DNA of 64,000 nucleotides from Escherichia coli (GCF_044324785.1 NZ_CP172127.1); one strand, 5' to 3'. Numbered from the stretch's first letter, positions 1 to 64,000 are shown. Numbers and translations: made by a program. Notes: a model not told the origin generated them from the letters alone.

Positions 1-1530
1 CTGTACCCAACCGTTTTGCGTAAAGACAAAACCGTCGAGATGCTCGCCAAAGTATTCCACCATGTCATTACGCTCGGCCTCGCCATGCACCAGCACATCC
101 AGACCTAAACGTTCCTGCTCAACAATGGCCTGCTTGATATGTTCCGCAATGCCCGTACGGTAGTTGTTGGCGTCGAGATTACCCTTTTTGAAATCCAGAC
201 GCAGGGTACGAATTTCCGTGGTTTGCGGGAAGGAACCAATCGTGGTGGTCGGCCACGCGGGCAGTTTAAAACGCGCACGCTGGGCTTCAGCACGCACTTC
301 ATAGACATTCGCACGCTGACTGTCCTGGGCGGTGATCGCCGCCAGACGCTTTTCTACCGCCGGATTATGGACACGGGTAGAGTGACGACGCGCCTGAATC
401 GGAGCGCTCCACTCTGCCAGAGCTGCCGTATCACCACTGTTCAGCGCATCGCGCAGTAGTGCCAGTTCGTGACATTTTTGTAGAGCGAAGGCAAACCAGC
501 TTTTCACTTCTGCATCAAGACGCGTTTCCACGCTCAGGTCGATGGGGCTGTGCAGCAGTGAGCAGGAAGATGCCACCCACAAATCACGTTTGCCGACAAA
601 GTCCTTAATTTGCGCATATTTCTCGGTAAGATCGGCGCGCCAGACGTTACGACCATTGATAAGACCCGCAGACAGTAGCCAGTCTGAAGGCAGACGCTTG
701 TGCAGTTCAGCAACGTCATCTTTACCATGTACAAGGTCCACATGCAGCCCCTGAACAGGCAGCGCAGTAATCGTGTCGAGATTTGGCGTTACGCCTTCAA
801 AATAGGTAGTCAGCAGCAGTTTCACCTGGCCCTGGAGCGCGTCGTAAGCGGGTTTGTATGCGTCCAGCCACGCCTGCGGCAGTTCCAGAACCAGCGCGGG
901 TTCGTCGATCTGTACCCACTCAATGCCGCGTTTTGCCAGTTCTGCCAGCACTTGCTGATAAACCGGCAGAATGTCGTTCAGCAGGCTAAGGCGATCAAAC
1001 TGTTCACCTTTCACTTTACCCAGCCACAGGTAGGTAATCGGCCCCAGCAGCACAGGTTTCACCTTGTGGCCCAGCGCCAGCGCCTCGTCCACTTCCTCCA
1101 GCAGCTGCGTCCAGGTCAGTTTGAACTGTTGGCCTTTAACGAACTCCGGCACCATGTAGTGATAGTTGGTGTTAAACCATTTGGTCATTTCCGCTGCCGC
1201 CGCAGGTTCGCCAGTCGGTGCACGTCCACGACCAATACGGAACAGGGTGTCGATATCTACCGAACCATCGTTGTTCTGATGACGTGGCGGAACATTACCC
1301 AGCAGCAGACTGGTGGTCAGTACATGATCGTACCAGGCAAAATCGCCCACCGGCAGCAGGTCGATACCCGCTTGCTTTTGTTGATCCCAGTGACGAGCAC
1401 GCAATTCACGCCCTACTGCCAGCAGTTCTTCACGCGTGGAGTTCCCCGCCCAATAACTCTCTTGCGCTTTTTTCAGCTCGCGACGCAGGCCAACGCGAGG
1501 GAAACCGAGGGTGTGATTAAGAATTGTCAT
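1..1530 (-). CDS. metE: Cobalamin-independent methionine synthase, N-terminal ~510 codons; the gene runs off the left edge of the window
   Basis: Reverse complement from 1530 translates to [35 protein letters not shown]..., which I recognise as the MetE N-terminus; start codon is 'cat' at 1528..1530 on the + strand. Absent from the ORF track only because it is truncated by the window edge. Confidence 0.92.
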
Positions 1531-1647
1531 TATATGCCCCTTATGGAATTTTTAGTATTTAGCCGTCCAGATGTTTACACATCCATAATTGGCGGTTACT
1601 GTATATTCCTCAAGCGCAAATTATTCATGCCGAAGTGAAGGACTTTC
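1531..1647. promoter_or_regulatory. metE-metR divergent control region (expected MetR activation site and MetJ boxes)
   Basis: 117-bp spacer between divergent metE and metR starts; contains near-palindromic 8-mers resembling the MetJ box AGACGTCT (e.g. 'ccgtccagatgtttacacatcc'). Exact operator positions not resolved. Confidence 0.5.
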
Positions 1648-2601
1648 ATGATCGAAGTAAAACATCTGAAAACGCTACAAGCGTTGCGGAACTGCGGCTC
1701 GCTCGCAGCCGCTGCGGCGACGTTGCATCAGACGCAATCCGCCCTGTCTCACCAGTTTAGCGATCTGGAACAACGCCTTGGCTTCCGGCTATTTGTGCGT
1801 AAAAGCCAGCCGCTTCGCTTTACACCGCAGGGAGAAATCCTGTTGCAACTGGCAAATCAGGTGCTGCCGCAAATCAGCCAGGCACTGCAAGCCTGCAATG
1901 AACCGCAGCAGACGCGTCTGCGCATCGCCATTGAGTGCCATAGCTGTATTCAGTGGCTGACGCCCGCGTTAGAAAATTTCCATAAGAACTGGCCGCAGGT
2001 CGAGATGGACTTTAAATCGGGCGTGACATTTGACCCGCAGCCCGCCTTGCAACAGGGAGAGCTGGATCTGGTAATGACGTCCGATATTCTGCCGCGCAGT
2101 GGCCTGCATTATTCGCCGATGTTCGACTATGAAGTACGCCTGGTGTTAGCACCTGACCATCCATTGGCGGCAAAAACGCGTATTACACCGGAAGATCTCG
2201 CCAGCGAGACGCTGTTGATTTATCCGGTGCAGCGTAGCCGACTGGATGTCTGGCGGCATTTTCTTCAGCCGGCAGGCGTCAGCCCGTCACTGAAAAGCGT
2301 CGATAACACCTTATTGTTGATTCAGATGGTTGCCGCGCGGATGGGTATTGCCGCCCTGCCGCATTGGGTAGTAGAGAGTTTTGAGCGCCAGGGTCTGGTG
2401 GTGACCAAAACCCTGGGCGAAGGCTTGTGGAGCCGACTGTACGCCGCCGTGCGCGATGGCGAGCAGCGTCAGCCGATTACTGAAGCGTTTATTCGCTCAG
2501 CGCGCAATCACGCCTGCGATCATCTGCCGTTTGTGAAGAGCGCGGAGCGACCCACTTACGATGCACCCACAGTGAGGCCAGGATCACCAGCGCGCCTGTA
2601 A
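1648..2601 (+). CDS. metR: LysR-family transcriptional activator of metE/metH
   Basis: 317-aa [48 protein letters not shown]... with an N-terminal LysR helix-turn-helix; divergent from metE. Confidence 0.93.
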
Positions 2602-3388
2602 TGAACGTTGGCCAGTGCGGCTGTTGGTGCCAGATAGCCAGGTTTACCAGCAGCCCTGCCGGAACGTGCATATTATTCATAATGCCCAGCGTTCCGGCGT
2701 CCACCTGCGTCGCGCCGTAGTTCCACATAAAGTAGCCAATCCCGGAAGCCACCACGCCAAGAAACACCAGAATGCCCCATTGCAGCGTGGTTTGCGGCAT
2801 TTTCTGCGCATTTCCCAGCAAGAACCATGCAATCACCGCCACCAGGAACGCGCCAAGATAGAACCACGCAAAGGCGTTATGCTGCGGCATCGGGCGAGTT
2901 TCCATCAGACGTTTGTAACCCACCATGCCGATGGCAAAAGTGATATTGGAGAGCTGCACCAGCAGCAGGCCAGTCCAGAAGTGGTCGGTGACCTGATCAT
3001 AGCGAATAATCCCGGCACCAATCACCGCCAACAAGGCGCTAAAAGCATAGCCCCAGCGCAGACGGCGCTGACTCATGATGTCATAAATCAACGTGATGTA
3101 GAGCGGCGTCAGTACGGTGAACAGCAACAATTCGGAGACCGTCAGGTAGAGATAGGCGCGAAAACTCAGCATATACATCACGCCGAGCTGCATCGCGCCC
3201 ACCAGCATATACAGGCCGACCGTTTTCAGGCTATTGCCACGGGTACGCAGAAACGGTAAAAAAACGAGTGCCGCCAGGCCAACGCGCACCAGCACCGCAA
3301 AATAGCTATCGACGTGCCCCGCAAGGTACTCGCCATAAAAGCTAAAGGAGAAGGCCCACAGAATCGTGGTGATGATAAGTAGCGCCAC
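2489..3388 (-). CDS. yigM: EamA/DMT-family inner membrane transporter
   Basis: 299-aa polytopic hydrophobic ORF in the conserved position between metR and yigL; its 3' end overlaps the metR 3' end convergently. Confidence 0.85.
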
Positions 3389-3463
3389 AATGGAAAACTC
3401 TTTGATTAACGAGTATCCATTGTAGCGAAGTATCAGGTTGACAACTGACCAAATAAAGAACGA

Positions 3464-4264
3464 TTACGATAAATAGAGCTTACGCAGATAATGCGGCACT
3501 GCGTCCTCGGCGTTAGTACCAATCACTTCCAGCTCCGGATGCAGATCTTTCAGACGCTGGTGCGCACTGCCCATAATGCAGCCTTTCCCCGCCATCGACA
3601 GCATTTCGGCGTCGTTCATGCCATCGCCAAAGGCAATGCAATCTTGCAGGCTGTAGCCCAGTTTCTTCGCCACCGCTTCCAGCGCATGACCTTTCGACAC
3701 GCCGCCCGCCATCACTTCCAGACAGGTTAAGGTAGAGAAACTAACGTTGACGCGATCGCCCCAGCGAGCGTTGATCGCCTGCTCCAGCGGCAGAAGTTGT
3801 TCATGGGAATCGCAGGTGAAGAACACTTTGCTGACGCCTTCCGGCTCCAGTAATCCCGGCTCATACAGCGCATATTTGAACACCGCTTCTTTAAAAAAGC
3901 GCATCTCTTCCGGGCGATGGCGATTCATAAACCATTCGTCGTCGCGATAAACATTAGTAATGATGTCCGGATTGTCGTTGACTACGCCAAACAGATCGCT
4001 GGCAATGTCGCGATCCAGGTTATGAGCAAAAATCAGATTGCCATCCAGATCGTGAACGCGCGCGCCATTGGAGGTAATCATGTAAGACTTAATCTCCAGA
4101 TTATCGCGAATTTGCCCCACATCAACGTGGTGACGACCGGTCGCAAACACAAAGTTGATGCCGCGCGCGGTGAGCAGCTTCAGAGTTTCTTTGGCGTAAG
4201 GGGATAACGTATGGTCGGGAGAAAGTAACGTGCCATCTAAATCAGACGCAACAACCTGGTACAT
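3464..4264 (-). CDS. yigL: HAD-superfamily (Cof-type) sugar-phosphate phosphatase
   Basis: The ORF extends to 4390, but the start is placed at the internal Met (MYQVVASDLDGTLLSPDHTLSPYAKETLKLL...) giving ~266 aa; HAD motif DxDGTL at the N-terminus; 'cat' at 4262..4264. Confidence 0.85.
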   Translation of the reverse strand: MYQVVASDLDGTLLSPDHTLSPYAKETLKLLTARGINFVFATGRHHVDVGQIRDNLEIKSYMITSNGARVHDLDGNLIFAHNLDRDIASDLFGVVNDNPDIITNVYRDDEWFMNRHRPEEMRFFKEAVFKYALYEPGLLEPEGVSKVFFTCDSHEQLLPLEQAINARWGDRVNVSFSTLTCLEVMAGGVSKGHALEAVAKKLGYSLQDCIAFGDGMNDAEMLSMAGKGCIMGSAHQRLKDLHPELEVIGTNAEDAVPHYLRKLYLS

Positions 4265-8669: not shown

Positions 8670-9128
8670 TTAGCGTCTGGCTGGATAATGTTGGATGCTG
8701 GATTCCAGATTTGCCAGGATCAAAGCGACATCGGCATCCGCCAAACGAAATTCCGCCTGCCATATATTCTCTGACGTATGAAATGTAGGGCATAGCCCGC
8801 AAGCCAGTATCACTTTGATAATAATGACATCACCGGAATACCCTGTGTATTCGAACTCCAGGCATGGCTCGGTAAATTCCAGATTTTTCTCCGGGTAGCC
8901 ATCGGGAGAAGGGCGCTGCAACAATGTGGTAAACCACCTATGAAGCTTTGTTAAGTCATATGTCCCTATTGCCGGATCTATCTTTTCAAACCGCTGATTT
9001 CCCTGCGTCACGCCCACTTTGAGGAATAACCAGTTACCATCCCAGAAATTACTGGCATCAGGATACTGATACCCCATAACATCCAGCGTCAAAGTAACGG
9101 CCAGCTCACTATTGCTTAACGTAATCAT
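8670..9128 (-). CDS. Hypothetical 152-aa protein (candidate accessory gene between pldA and recQ)
   Basis: Intact ORF MITLSNSELAVTLTLDVMGYQYPDASNFWDGNWLFLKVG...; no signal peptide or transmembrane segment seen; does not match any protein I recognise; sits between two core genes. Confidence 0.55.
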   Translation of the reverse strand: MITLSNSELAVTLTLDVMGYQYPDASNFWDGNWLFLKVGVTQGNQRFEKIDPAIGTYDLTKLHRWFTTLLQRPSPDGYPEKNLEFTEPCLEFEYTGYSGDVIIIKVILACGLCPTFHTSENIWQAEFRLADADVALILANLESSIQHYPARR

Positions 9129-9176
9129 ATCATTTGATTTTTAAACAAAAATTAGGTGCTGGCACTCTACCATGCA

Positions 9177-11714: not shown

Positions 11715-12095
11715 ATGTTACGTATGTTTATCCCAACATCTAATGGTAAGATTTCCAGACGCCGTTATATATTTTCATTTATTTTAATAAATTTCATTTT
11801 TGCCTTTCTTATTATCTTTTTTAACGATGGGGAAGCAGATTTTCTTGTTATAGTCTCTACCATCGTACTCCATTATCTCGTCATCAACTTGAATTGCCAA
11901 CGACTCCGTGATAGTGGTTTCGTCTATATAAAAACTTATGTTTTTGGTACATTAGCAGTATATATCATCTCTATCATCACAATGATAGCCGAAGATTTTG
12001 CCTGTTCAGGCAATGGTTCGATGATTTTTTTGATTTGTTATTTTTCCACTTTCAGTATGCTAATGCTTGCACCTACTGATTCATCAAAACAATAG
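11715..12095 (+). CDS. yigF: Small inner membrane protein (DUF805-like RRLxDxG motif)
   Basis: 126-aa product from [20 protein letters not shown]... with two hydrophobic segments and the motif NCQRLRDSG; AT-rich; Shine-Dalgarno 'aagga' upstream of ATG 11715. Confidence 0.75.
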
Positions 12096-12108
12096 TTATG
12101 GAGTATTT

Positions 12109-12489
12109 ATGAGTAAGGAATATATGAACGATGGTTCATTAAGTGAAAAATGGAAATACCGATTTAATTTTTATGATCAACATGGCTTTCCAGGATTCTG
12201 GGGGGCAACACCAGAATATAAAGCAGCATTTAAAACATTAAAAGTAAGACAACGATTAACTATTCAAATGAATTTCATTGCTTTCTTCTGTTCCTGGATC
12301 TATTTATTTGTTCTGGGATTATGGAAAAAAGCAATTATAGTTCTATTACTTGGCATTCTATCTCTATTTGTTGGTGCACTAATTGGCGTTAACATTCTGG
12401 GAATTGCCGTAGCAGCCTATGTTGCTGTTAACACGAACAAATGGTTTTATGAGAAAGAGGTAAAAGGGTTAAATACCTGGAGCCTTTGA
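12109..12489 (+). CDS. yigG: Small inner membrane protein
   Basis: 126-aa product from MSKEYMNDGSLSEKWKYRFNFYDQHGF... with two hydrophobic helices; AT-rich. Confidence 0.75.
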   Translation: MSKEYMNDGSLSEKWKYRFNFYDQHGFPGFWGATPEYKAAFKTLKVRQRLTIQMNFIAFFCSWIYLFVLGLWKKAIIVLLLGILSLFVGALIGVNILGIAVAAYVAVNTNKWFYEKEVKGLNTWSL

Positions 12490-12496: not shown

Positions 12497-12530
12497 GTGG
12501 CTTAGCCAGGCTAAGCCACCGCCTTCTTTT
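12497..12530 (+). terminator. Intrinsic terminator after yigG (bidirectional hairpin at the ancestral yigG/corA junction)
   Basis: Stem 'ggtggcttagcc / ggctaagccacc' followed by 'gccttctttt'. Confidence 0.65.
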
Positions 12531-12679
12531 TACAACCAGTTCTTCCGCTTAAAGTACAGATACGGTGCCAGGCCCGCGAGGATCATAAAGATAATCGCGC
12601 CAGGGTAGCCGAAACTCCACTTCAGTTCCGGCATAAACTCAAAGTTCATGCCATAGCTGGAGGCAATCCGCGTAGGAAA
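12530..12679 (-). pseudogene. corA: Displaced 3'-terminal fragment of corA (last ~48 codons, no start)
   Basis: ~150 bp that is a near copy of corA 14241..14390 (identical over the first 70 bp, a handful of mostly silent mismatches afterwards, then diverging); encodes ...[44 protein letters not shown], identical to the CorA C-terminus. The 67-aa ORF 12530..12733 is this fragment fused to unrelated upstream sequence. Confidence 0.85.
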
Positions 12680-12856
12680 AAGTTTCCTAATCGGTAAATT
12701 CAACATTTTGTTATTAACAATGAGCAAGACCAATCATTAACGACGTTCTCTTCAGAGATGTAATGAAAAAATGTGAAGTGTACTTCTTTTCTAAATATTT
12801 TTTTACCCTAGCATTTGTTCTCGAATTGATATTGAGCTTAAATATAACTAAGGCAA

Positions 12857-13711
12857 ATGCAAATGAATAACATATTACTTCCGCCAATTAATATTCCCTG
12901 TACACTTTTCGAAACTATTAGTTTATTCGATGATTTTTCTGCTGATGATATGCAATATGGTGATATGGTAGAACAAGACTTTCTCTCACTCGGCCTAAGC
13001 GATATCTCAGCAAAAGTTGATCCTTACCGACTTATTAAATACCATTTCCCTGGCCCAGGTTCTATTAATGTTGCTTTTAGTGCCTCAAGTTCCGGAACAA
13101 AAATATCACAACGTGAATGCACTGATATTTTATTTGCAGAAATGAAAGAACTAGCAAAAATGTTTTCCTTTTTTGGACAATATAAAACACTTATCGAAGA
13201 TCTGATTGAAAATTTTAGATATGGAAATGGCAGCAATTTTCATAGCCAACAATTAAATTTATCTTTTCATGAAAAAATAAATAAATATGGTTATAATAGT
13301 CCAATACGAATAATCAAAGAATGTATCGAAAATGGCATTAATTCAACTCCCTCGACAGGATACCAACCTCTTATCCTGCAAAGCATTAAAACCAAATTAC
13401 TTTCATCAAGACTAAATAAATTTAATGACTTCAAGGACAGTTTTAATGGCTTAGGAATCAGTGTTCATGATATTTCAGCTCAAAAAATATCTCTTTTAAG
13501 TTTTCAAAAATACGCTATAGGATGGAGTGCAACAATTCATTTTGTAGCACAGGACCACTTCGGTCTCGATGTAACTGATATCAAAAACAAGACTTATAGC
13601 AAATATAGATTTTTTCGCATATGGTTCTTTTTACAACGGCATAAAGACTTTGCTTTCAAACCTTTTTTCACCAATTTTAACACTATAGAAAGAATCGAAA
13701 ATTATCTATGA
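12857..13711 (+). CDS. Hypothetical 284-aa protein, no signal peptide (candidate toxin/effector or defence protein of an inserted cassette)
   Basis: Intact ORF in strongly AT-rich DNA; better Shine-Dalgarno spacing suggests the second ATG (12863, MNNILLPP...) may be the start; contains a Cys (QRECTD) and downstream His residues (SVHDIS, TIHFVAQDHFGLD); stop overlaps the start of the next ORF. Confidence 0.65.
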   Translation: MQMNNILLPPINIPCTLFETISLFDDFSADDMQYGDMVEQDFLSLGLSDISAKVDPYRLIKYHFPGPGSINVAFSASSSGTKISQRECTDILFAEMKELAKMFSFFGQYKTLIEDLIENFRYGNGSNFHSQQLNLSFHEKINKYGYNSPIRIIKECIENGINSTPSTGYQPLILQSIKTKLLSSRLNKFNDFKDSFNGLGISVHDISAQKISLLSFQKYAIGWSATIHFVAQDHFGLDVTDIKNKTYSKYRFFRIWFFLQRHKDFAFKPFFTNFNTIERIENYL

Positions 13712-14199
13712 AAAGCAAACTCCAGAAAATTATATTATGTTTATTTCTTCTATGCTGCATCTATAATTTATGGACATTGCGTCCTGTACAGATTTTGTAT
13801 ACATACTCTGATGCTGGCAATTCAGTCTTTCTGGTCGTTGATCATCTGCCATGGACTGACAGCGATAAAATAAATTGGTATCTGAAGCATCAGAATGAAA
13901 TTAAAAATCAACATCCCCTACCAGAAGGTAGTTGGCATACCTGGTATGTCATTGATATCGGTAATGGCTTCACTGACTATAAAAAATATATTGAAGGGCC
14001 GTATGAAGATCTCTACTGTTTCCCGACAATTAAGAGCAATGATAATTGCATCGTGAAAAATTACTTAATGGTTATTAATGAATACCCTTATCGTAACACT
14101 CATATTGGTATTAACGATTTTACTGAGTATCAATTAACACAAGAAAATAAAATAGAGCGAGTTTTCAATCCGCATGACTTTAAAAAAGACAATTTTTAG
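13708..14199 (+). CDS. Hypothetical 163-aa protein with N-terminal signal/anchor segment (candidate immunity or partner protein)
   Basis: MKSKLQKIILCLFLLCCIYNLWTL... hydrophobic N-terminus; start ATG overlaps the upstream stop (ATGA at 13708..13711), implying translational coupling; AT-rich. Confidence 0.65.
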   Translation: MKSKLQKIILCLFLLCCIYNLWTLRPVQILYTYSDAGNSVFLVVDHLPWTDSDKINWYLKHQNEIKNQHPLPEGSWHTWYVIDIGNGFTDYKKYIEGPYEDLYCFPTIKSNDNCIVKNYLMVINEYPYRNTHIGINDFTEYQLTQENKIERVFNPHDFKKDNF

Positions 14200-14205
14200 A
14201 AATAA

Positions 14206-14233
14206 GCCGGATAAAAAAATAGCTTTATCCGGC
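14206..14233. terminator. Hairpin between convergent cassette ORF and corA (putative bidirectional terminator)
   Basis: Inverted repeat 'gccggataaa ... tttatccggc' with an A-rich loop. Confidence 0.5.
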
Positions 14234-14240
14234 ACTCATA

Positions 14241-15191
14241 TTACAACCAGTTCTTCCGCTTAAAGTACAGATACGGTGCCAGGCCCGCGAGGATCATAAA
14301 GATAATCGCGCCTGGGTAGCCGAAACTCCACTTCAGTTCTGGCATAAACTCAAAGTTCATCCCGTAGCTGGAAGCAACCAGCGTCGGTGGCAGGAACACC
14401 ACGGATACCACCGAGAAGATTTTGATGATGCGGTTCTGCTCGATGTTGATAAAGCCCATAGCCGCCTGCATCAGGAAGTTCACCTTCTGGAACAGGGATT
14501 CGTTATGCGGCAGCAGGGATTCGATATCTCGCAGGATTTCACGCGCCTGCTCCAGTTGCCCACCCGGTAAGCGTGCTTTACGTACCAGGAAGTTGAGCGC
14601 GCGCTGGGTATCCATCAGACACAGGCGAACTTTCCAGCCGATATCTTCCAGTTCCGCCAGCGTGGAGAGCGCCTCGTCGTACTCATCGCCCTGATGCCCT
14701 TCCATAATTACCCGGCTCAACTGCTCCAGGTCGCTGTAGATATTTTCAATTTCATCTGCCAACTGTTCGATTTTGGTTTCGAACAGATCCAGCAGCAGCT
14801 CGTAGGCATTACCGTCTACCATCGACTGGCTACGGGCACGCATACGATACAGACGGAATGCAGGCAATTCACGCTCACGCAGAGTAAACAGACGACCATC
14901 ACGGATGGTAAATGCCACAGTGGAGTTACCGGCGTGATCTTCCGCATCTTCAAAGAAGAAGAAGGAGTGAATATGCAGGCCGTCATCGTCTTCAAAGAAA
15001 CGTGCCGATGCTTCGATGTCTTCCAGTTCCGGGCGGGTTGCCAGGCTCTGGCCAAGTTCAGATTGTACGCGCAGTCGCTCGTCGTCGTCCGGTTCGACAA
15101 GATCAATCCATACTGCATTTACAAGGGGTTGTGACTCTTCGACTTCCAGCCGGGTCAGTCGGTTATTTTCCAGTTGAAATGCGCTCAGCAT
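14241..15191 (-). CDS. corA: Mg2+/Co2+ transporter CorA
   Basis: Start placed at [31 protein letters not shown]... (316 aa); C-terminal GMN motif ([11 protein letters not shown]); 'cat' at 15189..15191. Confidence 0.93.
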
Positions 15192-15560
15192 GACCGGGAC
15201 TCCCAATGCTTAAAATATCGGACAGTTCGGTGGGCACACAGAAACAAATTGGGTTTCAGACCATTAAACAGCCTGACTCAGCGCGACGGGAAAAATTGAG
15301 GTCGCTGACAACCGCTAAGGCTATCAGCAAAAAGGGATAGCCTTAGGAGTTGATCCTGGATGACAGGATAGTGAGCCAGTATCTACTGGGTGTGTCCAAG
15401 GCGAATGTCCTCTTAGAGTGATCGTGCGCGCATGTTACGCCAGCAAAATTTTGCCGTCAACACGCAACAGAACACCACAGAACAATAGTTGAACTTCGCG
15501 CTTTTTGGTACTCGTCAAGGTCGCTAACAGGATAAAAAAATCCCACATCCAGGACCTATA

Positions 15561-16325
15561 ATGGCGCATCGGCTACTCATTGGTAAAGGAATGATCACCT
15601 TGAATCTCAAACGGATTTTTCTCGCCCTCACCTTACTTCCCTTGTTTGCTGTTGCCGCTGATGATTGCGCACTCTCAGATCCGACGCTGACCGTACAGGC
15701 GTATACCGTTAATCCTCAAACAGAGCGGGTGAAAATATACTGGCAAAAAGCCAATGGCGAAGCGTGGGGAACGTTACATGCTCTGCTGGCGGATATGAAT
15801 AGTCAGGGTCAGGTGCAGATGGCGATGAACGGCGGCATCTATGATGAAAGCTATGCGCCGCTCGGTTTGTACATCGAAAACGGTCAGCAGAAGGTGGCGT
15901 TAAATCTCGCTTCAGGTGAAGGGAATTTCTTTATTCGTCCTGGCGGCGTGTTTTATGTCGCGGGAGATAAAATCGGCATCGTTCGTCTGGATGCCTTTAA
16001 AACCAGTAAAGAGATTCAGTTTGCGGTGCAGTCAGGGCCAATGTTGATGGAAAACGGCGTAATTAATCCGCGTATTCATCCCAACGTCGCCTCACGTAAA
16101 ATTCGTAACGGTGTTGGGATTAATAAACAAGGGAACGCCGTGTTTTTGTTGAGCAAGCAGGCGACAAATTTTTATGATTTTGCCTGTTATGCCAAAGCGA
16201 AACTGAACGTTGAGCAGCTGCTTTATCTTGATGGCACGATTTCACATATGTATATGAAAGGCGGGGCAATCCCGTGGCAACGCTATCCTTTTGTCACCAT
16301 GATTTCCGTCGAGCGGAAAGGTTAA
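15561..16325 (+). CDS. yigE: DUF2233-family secreted protein
   Basis: 254-aa ORF with signal peptide (…LALTLLPLFAVAADD); conserved position divergent from corA. Confidence 0.8.
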   Translation: MAHRLLIGKGMITLNLKRIFLALTLLPLFAVAADDCALSDPTLTVQAYTVNPQTERVKIYWQKANGEAWGTLHALLADMNSQGQVQMAMNGGIYDESYAPLGLYIENGQQKVALNLASGEGNFFIRPGGVFYVAGDKIGIVRLDAFKTSKEIQFAVQSGPMLMENGVINPRIHPNVASRKIRNGVGINKQGNAVFLLSKQATNFYDFACYAKAKLNVEQLLYLDGTISHMYMKGGAIPWQRYPFVTMISVERKG

Positions 16326-16407
16326 GCATTGTACACTCGAGGAGGCCAGACAAACTGGGGCTGGCTACACAGCTGGAAAATCATCAGATAAATGAAGGGA
16401 AACAAAA

Positions 16408-17310
16408 ATGAAAAAAACGCTCGCAACGTTATTTTTATTAACGTGTCTGGGATCATCATCCGCTTATGCGGATAACGCTTTGATTTTACAAACTGATTTT
16501 AGCCTGAAAGATGGTGCCGTCTCGGCGATGAAAGGGGTCGCATTCGGTGTTGACCATAATCTTAAAATATTTGATTTAACACACGAAATTCCACCGTATA
16601 ACATCTGGGAAGGCGCTTACCGCCTGTATCAGACCGCCAGTTACTGGCCGCAAGGTTCGGTATTTGTCAGTGTGGTCGATCCTGGTGTTGGTACAGACCG
16701 TAAATCGGTAGTGCTGAAAACCAAAAACGGTCAATACTTCGTTTCACCAGATAACGGTACGCTCACTTTGGTGGCACAAACTCTGGGTATTGATAGCGTC
16801 CGGGAAATCGACGAAAAAGCTAACCGCCTGAAAGGTTCTGAAAAGTCATATACCTTCCACGGTCGTGACGTGTATGCCTACACCGGTGCGCGTCTGGCTT
16901 CCGGGGCGATTACGTTCGAACAGGTGGGGCCAGAGCTTCCTGCAAAAGTTGTCGAACTTTCTTATCAGAAAGCAAAAGCAACAAAAGGTGAAGTGAAGGG
17001 CAATATCCCGATTCTCGATATTCAGTACGGCAACGTCTGGAGCAATATCAGCGACGAGTTGCTGAATCAGGCAGGAATCAAACTCAACGACACGTTGTGT
17101 GTGACCATTTCCGAAGGTTCCCAGCAAAAATACGCAGGGAAAATGCCGTATGTCGCAAGCTTCGGCGATGTGCCGGAAGGCCAGCCGATGGTGTATCTGA
17201 ACAGCTTGTTGAATGTTTCCGTGGCGCTGAATATGGATAATTTTGCGCAGAAACATCAGGTTGCGTCTGGTGCTGACTGGAATATTGATGTGAAGAAGTG
17301 CGCTAAGTAA
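16408..17310 (+). CDS. SAM hydroxide adenosyltransferase (DUF62) family protein with N-terminal signal peptide
   Basis: 300-aa ORF; signal peptide MKKTLATLFLLTCLGSSSAYA; then LILQTDFSLKDGAVSAMKGVAFGVD...THEIPPYNI...VSVVDPGVGTDRKSVVLKTKNGQYFVSPDNGTL, which matches the DUF62 N-domain pattern as I remember it. Confidence 0.7.
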   Translation: MKKTLATLFLLTCLGSSSAYADNALILQTDFSLKDGAVSAMKGVAFGVDHNLKIFDLTHEIPPYNIWEGAYRLYQTASYWPQGSVFVSVVDPGVGTDRKSVVLKTKNGQYFVSPDNGTLTLVAQTLGIDSVREIDEKANRLKGSEKSYTFHGRDVYAYTGARLASGAITFEQVGPELPAKVVELSYQKAKATKGEVKGNIPILDIQYGNVWSNISDELLNQAGIKLNDTLCVTISEGSQQKYAGKMPYVASFGDVPEGQPMVYLNSLLNVSVALNMDNFAQKHQVASGADWNIDVKKCAK

Positions 17311-17319
17311 GGTGCTGAT

Positions 17320-17350
17320 GCGGAATGCGGTGTGGCGCACCGCATTCCGC
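17320..17350. terminator. Perfect 31-bp palindrome between convergent 16408..17310 gene and uvrD
   Basis: 'gcggaatgcggtg tggcg caccgcattccgc'; no clear U-run, so could be a terminator or a REP-like structural element. Confidence 0.4.
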
Positions 17351-17354
17351 AACG

Positions 17355-23136: not shown

Positions 23137-24645
23137 GTGATCGGCACCTCGCGCCAGGATGGCTTTATGCACTATCGCAATGTGGTTTGTTTGTTGTCTT
23201 GTTCGTTGTTTTTATCGTCGGCATGGGGATGTCGGCTTTCCGCGCCTGAACATAATATTTACCAGAAACAGGGAAAAGGCGTGGTATACCTGCGCCCTTA
23301 TAAAGAAACAAATCTTTCTCTTCCTGACGTGAATTACAAAAGTTTGCGTCGGTTACCCAATTTATTAATAGACCCGACAACACTAGACGAATGGGATAAA
23401 GAACCGCCTCTGACTGATTTGACAACCGACTACCTCTATGAAGGCGCACAGGCCTGGTATCCTCATTACTCCTGGCATAGCGATGGTCGCTATATCCTTT
23501 ACGCGGGTGAAGTTGTGCAAAACCCGCCAGACAAACCTCCCGTCGATGTCGCCTCGTTCAAGGCGTGGGGTGATTTTGCCGCAGATAAACACAGTCTCTA
23601 TTTCGAAGGCAAGCGCACCGATAACAATGGCGGGGGAAATAGCTTAGATATCAAAACACTGCATCAGGTGGAATTCCGGCCTCCCTGGAAACCTGACTTA
23701 CTGGGGCTGATATTACGTGACGCTAATTTCTTATATATCAATGGGCATCGCCTCGCTGACCCCGAGAGTTTCCGTGTGCTGGCGCAGAAGTCCTGGGATC
23801 AGCGAGGAAAGTTTTCTACCGCGTTTAATCCCTGTGTGGCTATGCCATTTGGCCCCTGGGATACCCTGGCTCGTACACGGACCAAAATCCTGATCAACGG
23901 CGAACAGCTTGATGCCGACCCGGACACCTTTTCCGTCGTGCGCTGGATGCCCGGCTCACTCTTGACCTGGCGTGATAAAAACGGGCTACAGCGTAAAGTC
24001 CTCGACAAGGAAAATCTGGCGTGGGATGAAGATTTAACAAAGCACTGTCTGGATTTTTCTCTGCTGGAAAAGAAAGTGTTCTGGCGTAAAGGGCCTGACT
24101 GTAAACAGGAAGAGTTACCGGGGCTCGATCCTGAACAGTTCCACCCCATCAGTGATGCTGTCGCCCAGTATCAGGATTCGCTTTATACCATCATCGAAAC
24201 AGAGTCTGGTGACCGCAAGCTGGAGATCGTGAAACTTGATGATCCCAATCTTATTATCAACAAACGTTTCAACGCCGGGAAACGCCACGGCTATTTACTT
24301 ACGCGTGCCGAAGGGTGGCCATACCATTCCGGTTTACACGTGTTTGAATCTGACGGACCGCTGATCTTACTGGATAACCGCTCTCCGGATGAACGCGAAG
24401 CCCATCTTAATGACCATCCCTTTTTGCGCAGATGGTATGCCCGCGATAACCGCTACATTTACAGCTTTGATGGCGCGCAGCTCTGGCGATACCGCATCGC
24501 TGATCCGAAACAAGTTCGCTTAATCTGGAAGGAACAACATTCGGGATATGGCTATGGCGTAAATTACAAAACGGGATATCTGGACGGAAAAATTACTGAT
24601 GACGGCGAATTTATTCCTGCCCCGCGCAATGAGGCGACAAAATGA
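23137..24645 (+). CDS. Secreted repeat protein (DKNYY-like repeats), first of a tandem paralogue pair
   Basis: 502-aa ORF (an alternative start at 23167, MHYRNVVCLLSCSLFLSSAWGC..., gives a signal-like N-terminus); recurring motifs DKHSLYFEGKR, DANFLYINGHRL, DNRYIYSFDG; collinear similarity to the downstream ORF. Confidence 0.65.
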   Translation: MIGTSRQDGFMHYRNVVCLLSCSLFLSSAWGCRLSAPEHNIYQKQGKGVVYLRPYKETNLSLPDVNYKSLRRLPNLLIDPTTLDEWDKEPPLTDLTTDYLYEGAQAWYPHYSWHSDGRYILYAGEVVQNPPDKPPVDVASFKAWGDFAADKHSLYFEGKRTDNNGGGNSLDIKTLHQVEFRPPWKPDLLGLILRDANFLYINGHRLADPESFRVLAQKSWDQRGKFSTAFNPCVAMPFGPWDTLARTRTKILINGEQLDADPDTFSVVRWMPGSLLTWRDKNGLQRKVLDKENLAWDEDLTKHCLDFSLLEKKVFWRKGPDCKQEELPGLDPEQFHPISDAVAQYQDSLYTIIETESGDRKLEIVKLDDPNLIINKRFNAGKRHGYLLTRAEGWPYHSGLHVFESDGPLILLDNRSPDEREAHLNDHPFLRRWYARDNRYIYSFDGAQLWRYRIADPKQVRLIWKEQHSGYGYGVNYKTGYLDGKITDDGEFIPAPRNEATK

Positions 24646-25952
24646 AGGGTCAAATAATCACAGTTGCACTCATCCTGTTGGGGCACACATTTCTGACACC
24701 TGCTGTACAGGCCATAGAGTTCGACTATTACAATGATCACGGTGTCATGTCTTACGGTAAAGGTTATTGGGGGGATAAGAAAATCATTGCCCAATTTCCG
24801 AAGATGAACAGGGCCGATTTGCGCCTTGTGAAAAATATATCCGGGGAGACGGATTATATACCTTCCGATGAAATGAGCATAAAAAATGAGGAATACCACT
24901 GGGTGACAGACGGCCACGTTATTCTCTGGCGTGGCAAAATCGTTAGCAATCCACCGGGAACACCCACTGTCGATATTGCCAGCTTTCAGGCTATGGGCCG
25001 CTTCGCGGTCGATAAATATAGCCTCTATTTTGACGGACAGCGCACCGAAAGTAATAGCGGCGCGTCACGTGTTGATCTGGCGACACTAAAAGCTATCGAA
25101 GGTAACTCTACCACGCTGGTGGATAGTAAAAATCTCTACTTGTCCGGTAGACGTCAGGGGAGCAGCAGTAATGTTACTGTATTAGAAAAAAGATGGTGGG
25201 GTATTAATCCACGTCTTATGAGTGTAAACAGAAATTTGTATTCCAATGATCTGCTTATCCGCAGTGGGCAGAATATTTATTTAAATGGCGTTCACCTTAC
25301 GGCGAATGCAGACTCATTTGAGATAATTCGCTGGATACCTCATTCACTGCTGGTTTTTCGCGATAATAAGGGTATGCATCGTTATCCCTTTGGGCAATTG
25401 TCTGGCAAAGCGATACCCGTAGATGATGACGTCTCTTTTGAAGTAGGAGAAAGTCGCGTTCGCTGGCGTAAACAGCTCACGCCCGACCGTCAGTGGAGCA
25501 AGTGGATAGACCTACCAGGTATTGAACCTGAACAATTCCATCTGATTACTGGCAATATTGCGCAATATAAAGATCGGTTGTATGTAACAAAATTATCGAC
25601 ATTTGGTGAAGACCAGCTTGAGATAATCCCGCTGGATACGCCAGACCTGGTCATTGATCGCTCATTTAATAGCGGCAAACAGCATGCTTATTTTATCCGC
25701 CAATTACGGTCAAAGAGCGTGCAAATTATTCCAGTTAACGGTCCGCTAACTAAAAACGATCGCTTCGCTTATGACGATCGCAATGTTTATACATGGACCG
25801 ATACAGAGGTAAGGATTACGCCCTCCCCCTGCCCGGCGAAAACACGCGTCAGAGAAGAGAATGTGCGTGAACTTCACAACAGAGACATTATTATTCCGTT
25901 GACGGATGAATCATGCCAGAACGCAGCAGACGAGCAAACTTTGAAGCCCTGA
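24642..25952 (+). CDS. Secreted repeat protein (DKNYY-like repeats), second of the tandem paralogue pair
   Basis: 436-aa ORF with signal peptide MKGQIITVALILLGHTFLTPAVQA; start overlaps the upstream stop (ATGA); motifs DKYSLYFDGQR, DSKNLYLSGRR, QNIYLNGVHL, DRNVYTW. Confidence 0.65.
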   Translation: MKGQIITVALILLGHTFLTPAVQAIEFDYYNDHGVMSYGKGYWGDKKIIAQFPKMNRADLRLVKNISGETDYIPSDEMSIKNEEYHWVTDGHVILWRGKIVSNPPGTPTVDIASFQAMGRFAVDKYSLYFDGQRTESNSGASRVDLATLKAIEGNSTTLVDSKNLYLSGRRQGSSSNVTVLEKRWWGINPRLMSVNRNLYSNDLLIRSGQNIYLNGVHLTANADSFEIIRWIPHSLLVFRDNKGMHRYPFGQLSGKAIPVDDDVSFEVGESRVRWRKQLTPDRQWSKWIDLPGIEPEQFHLITGNIAQYKDRLYVTKLSTFGEDQLEIIPLDTPDLVIDRSFNSGKQHAYFIRQLRSKSVQIIPVNGPLTKNDRFAYDDRNVYTWTDTEVRITPSPCPAKTRVREENVRELHNRDIIIPLTDESCQNAADEQTLKP

Positions 25953-59378: not shown

Positions 59379-59416
59379 AGGAAAATCGCTCAATGAAAGT
59401 CGGGAGGGGAAAATAA

Positions 59417-59746
<330 letters not shown>

Positions 59747-59775: not shown

Positions 59776-59791
59776 GAACTCTGAATCGCAC

Positions 59792-61267
59792 TTAACCTGC
59801 AACAGCAATACGTTTCATATCCGTCATATAGCCGCGCAGTTTCTTACCTACCTGCTCAATCGCATGGCTGCGAATCGCTTCGTTCACATCACGCAACTGC
59901 GCGTTATCTACCGCACCTTCCGGAATAGCTTTACCCAGGTCGCCCGGTTGCAGCTCTGCCATAAACGGTTTCAGCAGCGGCACACAAGCGTAAGAGAACA
60001 GATAGTTACCGTATTCAGCGGTATCAGAAATAACCACGTTCATTTCATACAGACGCTTACGGGCGATGGTGTTGGCAATCAGCGGCAGTTCGTGCAGTGA
60101 TTCATAGTAAGCAGACTCTTCGATGATGCCGGAATCAACCATGGTTTCAAACGCCAGCTCAACGCCCGCTTTTACCATCGCGATCATCAGTACGCCTTTA
60201 TCGAAGTACTCCTGCTCGCCGATTTTGCCTTCATACTGCGGCGCGGTTTCGAACGCGGTTTTGCCGGTCTCTTCACGCCAGGTCAGCAGTTTCTTATCGT
60301 CGTTGGCCCAGTCAGCCATCATACCGGAGGAGAATTCGCCGGAGATGATATCGTCCATATGTTTCTGGAACAGCGGTGCCATGATCTCTTTCAATTGCTC
60401 AGAGAGCGCGTAAGCGCGCAGTTTCGCCGGGTTAGAGAGACGGTCCATCATCAGCGTGATGCCGCCCTGTTTCAGTGCTTCGGTGATGGTTTCCCAACCG
60501 AACTGAATTAGTTTTTCTGCGTATGCCGGATCGGTGCCTTCTTCCACCAGCTTGTCGAAGCACAGCAAAGAGCCAGCCTGCAACATGCCGCACAGGATGG
60601 TTTGCTCGCCCATCAGGTCAGATTTCACTTCCGCAACGAAGGACGATTCCAGCACGCCCGCACGGTGACCACCGGTTGCTGCCGCCCATGCTTTAGCGAT
60701 CGCCATGCCTTCGCCTTTCGGATCGTTTTCCGGGTGAACGGCAATCAGCGTCGGTACGCCGAATCCACGTTTGTACTCTTCACGCACTTCGGTGCCCGGG
60801 CATTTCGGCGCAACCATTACTACGGTGATGTCTTTACGGATCTGCTCTCCTACTTCCACGATGTTGAAACCGTGCGAGTAACCCAGCGCCGCGCCATCTT
60901 TCATCAACGGCTGTACGGAACGCACAACGTCGGAATGCTGCTTATCCGGCGTCAGGTTAACCACCAGATCCGCCTGCGGGATCAGTTCTTCGTAAGTACC
61001 AACTTTAAAGCCGTTTTCGGTCGCTTTACGCCAGGACGCGCGCTTCTCGGCAATCGCTTCCTTACGCAGAGCGTAGGAGATATCGAGACCAGAATCACGC
61101 ATGTTCAGGCCCTGGTTCAGACCCTGTGCGCCACAGCCGACGATGACCACTTTTTTACCCTGAAGGTAGCTCGCGCCATCGGCGAATTCATCGCGCCCCA
61201 TAAAGCGACATTTGCCCAGCTGTGCCAGCTGCTGGCGCAGATTCAGTGTATTGAAGTAGTTAGCCAT
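59792..61267 (-). CDS. ilvC: Ketol-acid reductoisomerase
   Basis: The ORF extends to 61489, but the start is placed at [49 protein letters not shown]... (491 aa); 'cat' at 61265..61267. Confidence 0.95.
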
Positions 61268-61416
61268 GGTGATTCCTCGTGATGTTGTGCTTCTTATTGT
61301 TCGGTTCGCGTTTGCGAGATTGAATTCACTATATGACAGGAAATTTATTGCGGAAATTGATATATTCACAACGTCACATTGCAATTTCTGCAACGTCAAC
61401 ATCGAGGGCTGCGCCT
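61268..61416. promoter_or_regulatory. ilvC-ilvY divergent promoter/operator region (IlvY binding sites expected)
   Basis: 149-bp spacer between divergent ilvC and ilvY starts; A/T-rich with partial dyads. Operator positions not resolved. Confidence 0.5.
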
Positions 61417-62307
61417 GTGGATTTACGCGATCTGAAAACCTTCCTGCATCTGGCGGAAAGCCGCCATTTTGGCCGTAGCGCGCGGGCAATGCACGTTAGC
61501 CCGTCTACGCTTTCGCGACAAATACAGCGCCTGGAAGAAGATCTCGGTCAGCCGCTGTTTGTGCGTGATAACCGCACGGTAACGCTGACGGAAGCGGGCG
61601 AAGAACTGCGCGTTTTCGCCCAGCAAACACTGTTGCAATATCAGCAATTGCGCCACACCATCGACCAGCAAGGGCCGTCGCTCTCTGGTGAATTACATAT
61701 CTTCTGCTCGGTGACCGCTGCCTACAGCCATCTTCCACCGATTCTCGACCGCTTCCGCGCGGAACATCCGTCAGTGGAGATCAAACTCACTACCGGTGAT
61801 GCGGCCGATGCGATGGAAAAGGTGGTCACTGGCGAAGCGGATCTGGCGATTGCGGGTAAACCGGAAACCTTGCCGGGCGCAGTGGCGTTTTCGATGCTGG
61901 AGAATCTGGCGGTGGTGCTGATTGCTCCCGCGCTGCCCTGCCCGGTGCGTAATCAGGTATCTGTCGAAAAGCCCGACTGGTCTACAGTGCCGTTTATCAT
62001 GGCCGATCAGGGACCGGTACGCCGCCGCATTGAACTGTGGTTTCGGCGTAACAAAATCAGCAACCCAATGATTTACGCCACGGTTGGCGGGCATGAAGCG
62101 ATGGTATCGATGGTGGCGCTCGGCTGTGGCGTGGCGCTGTTGCCGGAAGTGGTGCTGGATAACAGCCCGGAACCGGTGCGTAACCGCGTGATGATTTTAG
62201 AGCGCAGTGATGAAAAAACGCCGTTTGAGCTGGGCGTGTGCGTACAAAAAAAGCGGCTTCATGAGCCGCTGATTGAGGCGTTCTGGAAGATTTTGCCGAA
62301 CCACTAA
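61417..62307 (+). CDS. ilvY: LysR-family regulator IlvY
   Basis: GTG start at 61417 giving (M)[47 protein letters not shown]...; the ORF extends upstream to 61333. Confidence 0.9.
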
Positions 62308-63848
62308 CCCGCCAAAAAGAACCTGAACGCCGGGTTATTGGTTTCGTCGTGGCAATCGTAGCCCAGTTCATTCAGCCGGGTTTCAAAATCCGGTTCATGA
62401 TCGCCAAGCTCGAACGCCGCCAGTACGCGCCCGTAGTCGGTACCGTGGCTGCGATAATGGAACAGCGAGATGTTCCAGTGCGTACCCAGCGTGTTGAGGA
62501 AGCGCAGCAGCGCGCCCGGTGATTCCGGGAATTCGAAGCTGTATAGGCGTTCCTGCAACGGATGCGATGGACGCCCGCCAACCATATAGCGCACGTGTAG
62601 CTTCGCCATTTCGTCGTCGGAGAGATCAACCACGCTGTAGCCGCCGTCGTTGAGCATCTGCAAAATTTCTTTGCGCTCTTCGAGACCGCGGCTCAGGCGC
62701 ACGCCGACAAAAATGCAGGCGTTTTTGGCATCAGCAAAGCGGTAGTTGAACTCGGTGACCGAGCGCCCACCAAGTAACTGGCAGAATTTGAGGAAGCTGC
62801 CCTTTTCTTCCGGAATGGTCACCGCCAACAACGCTTCACGCTGTTCGCCCAGTTCGCAGCGTTCCGAGACGTAGCGCAGACCGTGAAAGTTCACGTTGGC
62901 ACCGGAAAGAATATGCGCCAGCCGTTCACCGCGAATGTTGTGCTGGGCGATGTATTTTTTCATCCCTGCCAGCGCCAGCGCGCCAGAGGGTTCAGCCACC
63001 GCGCGTACATCTTCGAACAGGTCTTTCATCGCCGCACAGATGGCATCGCTATCGACGGTGATGATGTCGTCAAGATACTCCTGGCACAAACGGAAGGTTT
63101 CATCGCCGATGCGTTTTACCGCGACGCCTTCAGCAAACAGCCCCACGCGGGGCAGATCAACGGGATGACCCGCATCCAGCGCTGCTTTCAGGCAGGCGGA
63201 ATCTTCCGCTTCCACGGCGATCACTTTGATTTGCGGCATCAGTTGTTTGATCAGTACCGCGACGCCCGCCGCCAGACCGCCGCCGCCGACCGGTACAAAT
63301 ACGCGGTCGAGATGGGCGTCCTGCTGGAGCAGTTCCAGCGCCAGCGTGCCTTGCCCGGCGATCACCATCGGATGGTCGAACGGCGGTACCCAGGTGAAAC
63401 CCTGCTGCTGTGACAGTTCGATCGCTTTCGCTTTCGCTTCATCGAAATTTGCGCCGTGAAGCAGCACTTCGCCGCCAAAGCCGCGCACCGCATCAACTTT
63501 GATATCGGCGGTGGCGGTTGGCATGACGATCAGCGCCTTCACGCCTAACCGTGCGGAAGAAAACGCGACGCCCTGCGCGTGGTTACCCGCAGAAGCGGTG
63601 ATCACGCCGTGCGCTTTTTGTTCTTCCGTCAGGCCCGCCATCATGGCGTATGCGCCGCGCAGCTTAAAGCTGTGTACTGGCTGGCGATCTTCGCGCTTCA
63701 CCAGAATCACGTTATCAAGACGCGACGACAGTTTTTCCATTTTCTGTAGCGGCGTGACCTGCGCCGCTTCGTAGACCGGCGCGCGCAGCACCGCTCTTAA
63801 ATATTCGGCACCTTCCGGGGTACCGGACAGGGGTTGCGAGTCAGCCAT
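62304..63848 (-). CDS. ilvA: Biosynthetic threonine dehydratase
   Basis: 514-aa ORF MADSQPLSGTPEGAEYLRAVLRAPVYEAAQVTPLQKMEKLSSRLDNVILVKREDRQPVHSFKLRGAY... (PLP-lysine motif); 3' end overlaps the ilvY stop by 4 nt. Confidence 0.93.
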   Translation of the reverse strand: MADSQPLSGTPEGAEYLRAVLRAPVYEAAQVTPLQKMEKLSSRLDNVILVKREDRQPVHSFKLRGAYAMMAGLTEEQKAHGVITASAGNHAQGVAFSSARLGVKALIVMPTATADIKVDAVRGFGGEVLLHGANFDEAKAKAIELSQQQGFTWVPPFDHPMVIAGQGTLALELLQQDAHLDRVFVPVGGGGLAAGVAVLIKQLMPQIKVIAVEAEDSACLKAALDAGHPVDLPRVGLFAEGVAVKRIGDETFRLCQEYLDDIITVDSDAICAAMKDLFEDVRAVAEPSGALALAGMKKYIAQHNIRGERLAHILSGANVNFHGLRYVSERCELGEQREALLAVTIPEEKGSFLKFCQLLGGRSVTEFNYRFADAKNACIFVGVRLSRGLEERKEILQMLNDGGYSVVDLSDDEMAKLHVRYMVGGRPSHPLQERLYSFEFPESPGALLRFLNTLGTHWNISLFHYRSHGTDYGRVLAAFELGDHEPDFETRLNELGYDCHDETNNPAFRFFLAG

Positions 63849-63850
63849 TA

Positions 63851-64000
63851 TTAACTCCCCAGTTTCGATTTATCGCGCACCGCACCTTTGTCGGCGCTGG
63901 TTGCCAGGCTGGCGTAGGCGCGCAACGCAAAGGAGACCTGACGTTCGCGATTTTTCGGCGTCCAGGCTTTGTCGCCACGAGCTTCCTGCGCTTCACGACG
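63851..64000 (-). CDS. ilvD: Dihydroxy-acid dehydratase, C-terminal end only (gene continues beyond the right edge)
   Basis: Open minus-strand frame ending ...[23 protein letters not shown] with stop at 63851..63853, immediately upstream of ilvA on the same strand, consistent with the ilvD-ilvA operon order. Confidence 0.75.

Follow-up and report, generated by a model that had tools for sequence, protein, structure and literature searches.

The 64-kb window analysed here (a stretch of 64,000 nucleotides of Escherichia coli DNA running from metE to ilvD) carries four small segments that K-12 lacks, between pldA and recQ (site 1), yigF and corA (site 2), yigE and uvrD (site 3) and lptM and cyaY (site 4). 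Very probably these are four unrelated accessory islets of differing polarity that sit at junctions of the Escherichia core genome which have long been variable, and that have been reshuffled by recombination in their flanks. Of the four, sites 2 and 3 alone represent real insertions, old in origin and common. A preliminary description of the same DNA had read all four as repeated acquisitions, through recombination of flanking core sequence, of small cassettes of envelope-associated genes. Part of that account is borne out below, in that the sites behave as independent presence/absence polymorphisms with mosaic flanks, but sites 1 and 4 appear to be losses in K-12.

Four segments of the window are absent from K-12

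Alignment of the window by blastn with positions 3,950,000-4,015,500 of K-12 MG1655 gave one collinear chain from metE to ilvD at 93.5-98.4% identity, interrupted by four segments present in the window only (Table 1). Alignment and open reading frames (ORFs) agree with the preliminary description in finding one, two, one and two genes in these segments; the K-12 annotation of the region contains none of the six, which disposes of the possibility, raised in that description, that K-12 holds the same genes at these loci. The two genes of site 2 do lie next to corA as described, but their left neighbour is yigF, which follows yigG, and not yigG itself. The closest relative of the window among 5426 complete E. 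coli genomes is strain N3 (98.8% identity, the majority of the others standing at about 97.1%), in which all four segments are present and all six genes are annotated in RefSeq. Identical structures are found in several independent complete genomes, and an assembly artefact was rejected on that ground.

Neither the ORFs nor the N3 annotation reveal a transposase, an integrase or a tRNA gene in or beside any of the four segments, as the preliminary description had noted of mobility genes in general. Transposition or integrase-mediated insertion was rejected for sites 1, 3 and 4, where flanking direct repeats and mobility genes are both lacking. All six genes are lower in G+C (0.32-0.49) than the neighbouring core genes (0.51-0.58). 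An N-terminal signal or anchor was recognized in Ins2b, Ins3, Ins4a and Ins4b and in neither Ins1 nor Ins2a, these calls having been made heuristically, by eye and from hydropathy. With four of the six proteins so equipped, the earlier statement that several are exported stands, and the label of envelope-associated genes applies loosely to sites 2-4; it fails for site 1, whose product has no export signal. None of the six proteins matched a PADLOC defence model and, judging from its collinearity with K-12, the 64-kb window contains no vgrG, hcp, PAAR, type VI secretion system (T6SS) core, Rhs or contact-dependent inhibition (CDI) genes. The functions given to the segment proteins were assigned by homology or taken over from what has been published on related proteins, and the orders of events proposed for the four sites are reconstructions from what the comparisons display directly, namely segment coordinates, scars in K-12, frequencies, outgroup occupancy, the corA repeats and the mosaic of identities.

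Table 1. Segments of the window absent from K-12, the genes that they carry and the corA repeat copies that flank segment 2.
Feature	Coordinates	Strand	Basis
Segment 1, absent from K-12, pldA/recQ	8717-9162 (446 bp)		Gap in K-12 alignment
Ins1 gene, 152 aa, WapI-like, no signal peptide	8670-9128	-	Pfam PF24716
Segment 2, low-G+C cassette absent from K-12, yigF/corA	12667-14240 (1574 bp)		K-12 alignment, G+C
Ins2a, 284 aa, DUF3289/YPO3983, candidate periplasm-acting colicin M-like toxin	12857-13711	+	TIGR03034, Pfam
Ins2b, 163 aa, DUF943, membrane-anchored putative cognate immunity protein	13708-14199	+	Pfam, hydrophobic N-terminus
corA', duplicated non-functional corA 3' end, contiguous with native yigF-corA spacer	12525-12676	-	Alignment to 14236-14387
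3' end of functional corA, second direct-repeat copy flanking segment 2	14236-14387	-	Alignments
Segment 3, replaces K-12 120-bp REP-containing yigE-uvrD spacer	16326-17328 (1003 bp)		K-12 alignment
Ins3, 300 aa, DUF62 family, N-terminal signal peptide of about 22 aa	16408-17310	+	PDB homologues
Segment 4, apparently deleted in K-12, lptM/cyaY	23322-25878 (2557 bp)		K-12 alignment
Ins4a, 492 aa, Met11 of ORF 23137-24645, predicted exported DKNYY-like beta-repeat protein	23167-24645	+	N3 RefSeq start
Ins4b, 436 aa, predicted exported DKNYY-like beta-repeat protein	24642-25952	+	Weak Pfam DKNYY, AlphaFold

Sites 1 and 4 carry probable scars of gene loss in K-12

At site 1, K-12 keeps the last 16 codons of Ins1 (8670-8716 of the window), in frame and with the stop codon at the same place; the remnant translates as LANLESSIQDYPLRD and its counterpart in the window as LANLESSIQHYPARR. 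Since K-12 retains this in-frame remnant, site 1 reads as a deletion in K-12 and not as an acquisition by the lineage of the window. K-12 (phylogroup A), IMT5155 (B2) and O103:H2 (B1) share the left boundary of the deletion, and their right boundaries lie within 6 bp of each other, that of the B2 strain being the one that differs. Segment 1 itself was found in only two of the 5426 complete E. coli genomes, N3 and GF4-3, a count on which megablast and blastn agree. Alignments with Citrobacter end exactly at the Ins1 stop codon and leave no remnant of the gene, while L084, an Escherichia lineage at about 94% identity, likewise has a WapI-like gene, of 160 aa, between pldA and recQ (L084 8001-8483). 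Remnants in E. coli, none in Citrobacter and an allele in L084 together point to entry of the WapI-like gene into the pldA-recQ spacer after the Escherichia-Citrobacter split and to its later loss in nearly all E. coli. A single 446-bp deletion would have removed most of Ins1 and would now be present in essentially all E. coli, the lineage of the window being one of the rare keepers of the intact gene.

The L084 protein is 46% identical to Ins1 of the window; its first 20 or so and last 10 or so residues are nearly identical and the centre is divergent, which suggests replacement or fast diversification of the central part. Ins1 matches PF24716 with an E-value of 6.6e-22 over model positions 9-138 of 138, the domain reaching residue 149 of 152. 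An exhaustive search for relatives returned 602 family representatives, those listed being nearly all of about 150 aa; a word-indexed search returned three proteins. WapI-like homologues at 38-46% identity sit among housekeeping genes. Genomic context was checked for the three closest, P0050, P0051 and P0053: the genes of P0053 and P0051 are solitary among housekeeping genes with no toxin neighbour, and that of P0050 stands alone on an uninformative 1-kb contig. Neither is there a cognate polymorphic toxin beside Ins1, whose neighbours are pldA and recQ, and a PDB sequence search gave nothing at E<=1. Going by the name of its family, Ins1 may be an orphan immunity gene. In the L084 locus we also noted an Rpn (Transposase_31) gene between rhtC and rhtB.

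At site 4, K-12 keeps a degenerate 5' end of Ins4a together with the last 74 bp of Ins4b, and the equivalent remnant of strain A10 is annotated by RefSeq as a frameshifted DKNYY pseudogene. The interval from lptM/dapF to cyaY is occupied by homologues in E. albertii (a single gene), Citrobacter sp. FP75 (two), Salmonella enterica (a single gene, for 670 aa) and Escherichia sp. E4385 (three). Klebsiella spallanzanii has a tandem array of four homologues that follows lptM, the far flank there not being cyaY. Because K-12 retains both ends of the gene pair and homologues are found at the same position elsewhere, site 4, like site 1, is best read as a deletion in K-12, in which an internal deletion would have joined the start of Ins4a to the end of Ins4b. 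Segment 4 is covered over at least 80% of its length in 1393 of the 5426 genomes and partially in 190 more. With 0-4 DKNYY-like genes across the genomes inspected, the lptM-cyaY interval appears to house an ancient tandem family of variable copy number in Enterobacteriaceae.

Ins4a and Ins4b are paralogues (36% identity, E=1e-61), both with signal sequences, the N-terminus of Ins4a being hydrophobic. Their matches to DKNYY (PF13644) are weak, at E=9.5 for Ins4a and E=0.025 and 0.043 for Ins4b, and some homologues have a precomputed PF13644 match or are named DKNYY family in RefSeq. The AlphaFold model of Ins4b is all-beta, with a predicted local distance difference test score of 77; neither Pfam nor a structure search yielded an informative sequence or fold match for the Ins4 proteins. 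Against the B2 strain IMT5155, Ins4a is 86% and Ins4b 96% identical at the nucleotide level, with flanks at about 98%. O103:H2 has an additional DUF3304 gene between lptM and Ins4a (L087 14919-15473).

Sites 2 and 3 are probably old and common insertions

The cassette of site 2 has a G+C content of 32-33%, against 0.51-0.58 in core genes, and is covered over at least 80% of its length in 2632 of the 5426 genomes, in alleles of 88% to 100% identity. It is absent from E. albertii, from L071 and L084, two Escherichia lineages at about 93-94% identity, and from all other genera sampled. On this comparison site 2 is, as far as can be read from sequence, a true insertion of foreign origin, old and common rather than recent.

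Segment 2 is flanked by a direct repeat of about 150 bp of the corA 3' end, as seen in local alignments and in a three-way alignment with K-12. The left copy, corA', is truncated and is annotated by RefSeq as a partial CorA pseudogene in N3 and O103:H2, and the right copy belongs to an intact corA with a new downstream hairpin. The repeat structure is directly visible; the recombination behind it can be reconstructed as follows. The copy found in the window would have been joined some 140-150 bp inside the corA 3' end, the incoming DNA supplying a fresh corA 3' end, and this could have come about through one homologous crossover in corA combined with one illegitimate join, or through Campbell-type integration. 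Were the two corA repeats to recombine with each other, the outcome would be a scarless site like that of K-12.

In B2 strains and in A10 the cassette is present as an allele 9-12% diverged, which directly follows rarD, with neither corA' nor yigG-yigF. The rarD-corA interval thus holds yigG-yigF in K-12; yigG-yigF, corA' and the cassette in the window and N3; the cassette alone in IMT5155 and A10; a gene for a 99-aa hypothetical protein, with or without the cassette, in O103 and GF4-3; and nothing in L071 and Citrobacter. Five or more configurations make this interval a small hotspot.

Ins2a scored 435.7 bits against TIGR03034, for which the cut-off is 156.45, over profile positions 1-274 of 274, and matched Pfam DUF3289 with E=4e-83. 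Ins2b, whose gene lies directly downstream on the same strand with a 4-bp overlap, matched Pfam DUF943 with E=1.8e-26. For another member of the DUF3289 family, a colicin M-like toxin, toxicity in the periplasm and neutralisation by a DUF943 protein have been shown (PMC11148199), and an orphan DUF3289 protein of Aeromonas jandaei is a genuine T6SS effector (PMC12135965). Ins2a and Ins2b correspond to this published DUF3289/DUF943 toxin-immunity pair, their presumed roles being those of their relatives.

A search of plasmids with the site-2 cassette gave two full-length matches only, in records of 1.0 Mb and 4.8 Mb that are evidently chromosomal; true plasmids matched only the last 98 bp of the cassette, together with corA. 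A 1,699-bp copy of window positions 14143-15841, 98.4% identical, is found on IncHI1 plasmids (R27, pHCM1 and some 50 more); on R27 (NC_002305.1) it lies at L103 2501-4199. This copy directly adjoins IS1A and comprises corA and ysgD between the final 57 bp of the DUF943 gene and the initial 281 bp of yigE. As it holds the 3' end of the DUF943 gene, the chromosome from which it came must have carried the site-2 cassette, and DNA of this hotspot has therefore been moved onto conjugative plasmids.

At site 3 the K-12 spacer of 120 bp between yigE and uvrD includes a repetitive extragenic palindromic (REP) element and no remnant of Ins3, and this empty spacer has homologous counterparts in O103, GF4-3 and E. 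albertii. It is because the empty spacer is homologous across E. coli and E. albertii that we take the empty state as ancestral and Ins3 as a real insertion. Segment 3 is present in 2412 of the 5426 genomes, and Ins3 occurs in two Escherichia lineages outside E. coli, L071 and L084. The gene is as diverged as its flanks (94.0% identity to L071, with uvrD at 94.5%). Site 3 thus has the appearance of an old acquisition. Ins3 would have been inserted in place of the REP spacer after the split from E. albertii and would have segregated since then as an old presence/absence polymorphism.

The PDB matches of Ins3 are 2zbu (E=1.3e-43), SalL (1.5e-35) and PH0463 (8e-34), with alignments that begin at query residues 24-28, and members of its 99%-identical cluster carry Pfam PF01887 and PF20257 (SAM_HAT_N and SAM_HAT_C). 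It falls under each NCBIfam equivalog cut-off, with 131.5 bits against 350, 116.9 against 470 and 83.9 against 400, so that the assignment is one to family level only. E. coli and Shigella both hold the gene. HP0709 of Helicobacter pylori and H. acinonychis is 90% identical to Ins3 at the amino acid level and 83% at the nucleotide level, without a gap over 300 aa; this homologue occurs in thousands of genomes, and in H. pylori CP079055.1 the counterpart (L100 6001-6903) has surroundings usual for H. pylori (uvrA ... rpoN). HP0709 has a G+C content of 44.5% with flanks at 38%, and Ins3 in E. coli one of 47%, so that in both hosts the gene falls between the genome values of E. coli and H. pylori.

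This looks like an old inter-phylum transfer of a DUF62 enzyme predicted to be exported. A fuller proposal, which we advance as a serious but tentative possibility, is that the transfer took place between bacteria of the gut and stomach, possibly from a third donor, and that the exported enzyme acts outside the cytoplasm, probably on a new substrate. The substrate is probably new in that the enzyme would work where S-adenosylmethionine (SAM) is not expected. HP0709 is poorly annotated; according to the passages that concern it, it was seen in H. pylori outer-membrane vesicles by proteomics and was a match in a genome-wide association study of gastric cancer, and in those passages of the two studies a link to E. 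coli is not mentioned. Our search of the literature for an exported DUF62 or SAM hydroxide adenosyltransferase in E. coli brought up nothing relevant.

With all four sites in view, it is very improbable that the segments are fairly recent acquisitions of envelope cassettes through flank recombination, K-12 representing the ancestral empty state throughout. The absence of all four from K-12, the lack of mobility genes, the lower G+C content of the six genes, the mosaic similarity and the resemblance of sites 2 and 3 to insertions would all suit such a history, but the scars of the site-1 and site-4 genes in K-12 contradict it, as does the finding of homologues at the site-4 position in four or more other genera or species. 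Sites 2, 3 and 4 are moreover found in 26-49% of E. coli, with genes diverged as much as their flanking core genes or more, and on account of this frequency and this divergence we regard them as not recent. Finally, Ins1 lacks an export signal and its closest family homologues are not envelope-linked.

The islets appear to have been reassorted among lineages

All eight combinations of presence and absence at sites 2-4 occur in a sample of 59 genomes evenly spaced along the ranking for a query spanning these sites, all three being present in 5 genomes and none in 19. Sites 2 and 4 are associated in this sample (odds ratio 11), and the pairs 2-3 and 3-4 are not significantly so, the 59 genomes being phylogenetically non-independent. 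Between 8.6 and 15.5 kb approximately, a stretch that takes in sites 1 and 2, only 3 mismatches separate the window and N3; elsewhere the two diverge by up to 4.4%, and this N3-like stretch of about 7 kb is bordered by 1-4% divergence on either side. The stretch represents either a recent recombination tract that the two share or a clonal segment that has been retained. Around site 3 (about 16 kb) the window is closest to A10, with 0.2% divergence; A10 lacks site 1 and bears a deletion at site 4. GF4-3 carries segments at sites 1 and 4 and none at sites 2 and 3.

These data support the view that the four loci are independent presence/absence polymorphisms, and the patchwork of identities combined with the reassortment of sites 2-4 supports travel of the islets with flanking core DNA, by homologous recombination. 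Reshuffling among lineages through recombination in the flanking core genes would have produced the mosaic now seen. The least credible history among those that we considered is a single large import, in which one tract from a divergent Escherichia lineage brought in all four islets. N3 does carry all four, with sites 1 and 2 inside the one near-identical tract of about 7 kb, but outside 8.6-15.5 kb the divergence between window and N3 climbs to the values just given, site 3 is closest to that of A10 (99.9%) despite the lack of site 1 and the deleted site 4 of that strain, and both the opposite pattern of GF4-3 and the existence of all eight combinations of sites 2-4 run counter to it.

Several points weigh against our reading of four long-standing islets reshuffled by recombination in their flanks. 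The outgroup set is thin and partly arbitrary; E. albertii is represented by a single contig that stops short of pldA-recQ, and E. fergusonii not at all. The 5426 complete genomes on which all presence/absence counts rest are clinically biased and phylogenetically non-independent, and the association of sites 2 and 4 means that assortment is not free. At site 3, replacement of an ancestral gene through import of an albertii-like empty allele is a less likely alternative. At site 1, an inserted gene whose frame ran into a pre-existing spacer would likewise share its 3' end with K-12; countering this, the C-terminus that is kept in frame is covered by the Pfam domain and the sequence is lacking in Citrobacter.

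Other differences from K-12 around the four sites

The preliminary description had placed the four segments in otherwise conserved synteny, and as regards the collinear chain from metE to ilvD this is so, but yigG, yigF and yigE of K-12 are patchy, low-G+C accessory genes themselves. The first two (11715-12489) have a G+C content of 33-34% and a patchy distribution, being absent from the B2 strain IMT5155, A10, O103:H2, GF4-3, L071 and Citrobacter, and no homologue of yigE (15561-16325) was detected at any non-Escherichia locus sampled.

Two further spacers differ in length. That between metE and metR (1532-1557) falls short of its K-12 and N3 counterparts by about 120 bp; it lacks the Shine-Dalgarno stretch that K-12 has upstream of metE, and codons 3-4 of metE show synonymous changes. 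The short spacer is a common natural variant of the metE regulatory region, found as a 100%-identical allele in many complete E. coli genomes, and a lesion or engineered change was rejected because the same allele is common among natural genomes. The rep-ppiC spacer (59395-59448) measures 54 bp in the window and about 830 bp in K-12, where it includes the yifN pseudogene; the missing yifN stretch is a difference in gene content opposite in direction to the four segments.

Comparison with known systems

The Ins2 pair resembles the DUF3289/DUF943 pairs of T6SS (PMC11148199) in its two domains, its gene order, the absence of a signal peptide from the toxin and the anchoring of the immunity protein, and differs from them in that the E. 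coli pair is known here from sequence alone. Like the A. jandaei DUF3289 effector (PMC12135965), which is encoded away from any T6SS cluster, Ins2 lies apart from such genes within the 64-kb window; the immunity protein of that effector, however, is a different protein of 95 aa.

Ins1 shares with WapI, the immunity protein to WapA of Bacillus subtilis, a WapI-like domain that extends over nearly all of its 152 aa, and with orphan immunity genes a solitary position and very divergent alleles at one locus, which are typical of immunity genes. In contrast to WapI, Ins1 and those of its closest homologues that have an informative context lack an adjacent cognate toxin, and no structure match was obtained. 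A further reading sees in the four sites a functionally connected set for interbacterial conflict, made up of orphan immunity genes and a toxin-immunity pair and maintained by selection for protection from the toxins of neighbouring cells rather than persisting as neutral debris. We consider this very unlikely. In its favour are the naming of the Pfam family of Ins1 after an immunity protein, the published toxin-immunity pair to which Ins2 corresponds, the extra DUF3304 gene at site 4 in O103:H2 and the fact that alleles outdiverge their flanks (about 97-98%), with Ins1 at 46% amino acid identity, Ins2a at 87.5% nucleotide identity and Ins4a at 86%. However, the WapI-like homologues P0053 and P0051 have housekeeping genes and no toxin gene for neighbours, Ins3 is a homologue of enzymes, Ins4 has no informative sequence or fold match, PADLOC returned nothing and the window is free of T6SS, Rhs and CDI genes.

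With the DUF62 enzymes, which comprise SAM hydroxide adenosyltransferases and SAM-dependent halogenases (PH0463, Thermotoga 2zbu, SalL and the fluorinase), Ins3 shares full-length homology, and differs from them in its N-terminal signal peptide, which the solved, cytoplasmic enzymes lack. Campbell-type integration and homology-facilitated illegitimate recombination are established mechanisms, and the site-2 cassette, lying between direct repeats of the 3' end of its target, of which one is truncated and one intact, has the layout of their products. It departs from them in that no integrase, att site or circular form was identified for it and in that B2 strains and A10 have it immediately behind rarD with no repeat.

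The pattern as a whole has a precedent in the analysis of 21 E. coli genomes by Touchon et al. (2009; PMC2617782), who found indels at 49% of core-gene junctions and gene flux confined to fixed junctions of the core, most hotspots being without tRNA genes and integrases and acquired genes spreading by recombination in their flanks. With 49% of core junctions carrying indels among 21 genomes, four such sites are not above chance. The likeness lies in strain-dependent content at the same core junction, as seen at rarD-corA, yigE-uvrD, lptM-cyaY and pldA-recQ. The sites described here differ in holding 0-4 genes in every genome inspected, so that they are small junctions and not large hotspots, and in that two of the four differences from K-12 appear to be K-12 deletions. 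The pattern is a small-scale case of a hotspot behaviour already known for the E. coli pangenome, small strain-specific blocks free of mobility genes at fixed junctions being textbook for this species. It also carries a caution, as K-12 is not the ancestral state and half of the apparent insertions are, by their recognisable scars, probable deletions in K-12. Of greater interest than the pattern itself are the leads that emerged along with it, namely the link between the DUF62 protein and H. pylori, the beta-repeat family of lptM-cyaY and the copy on IncHI1 plasmids.

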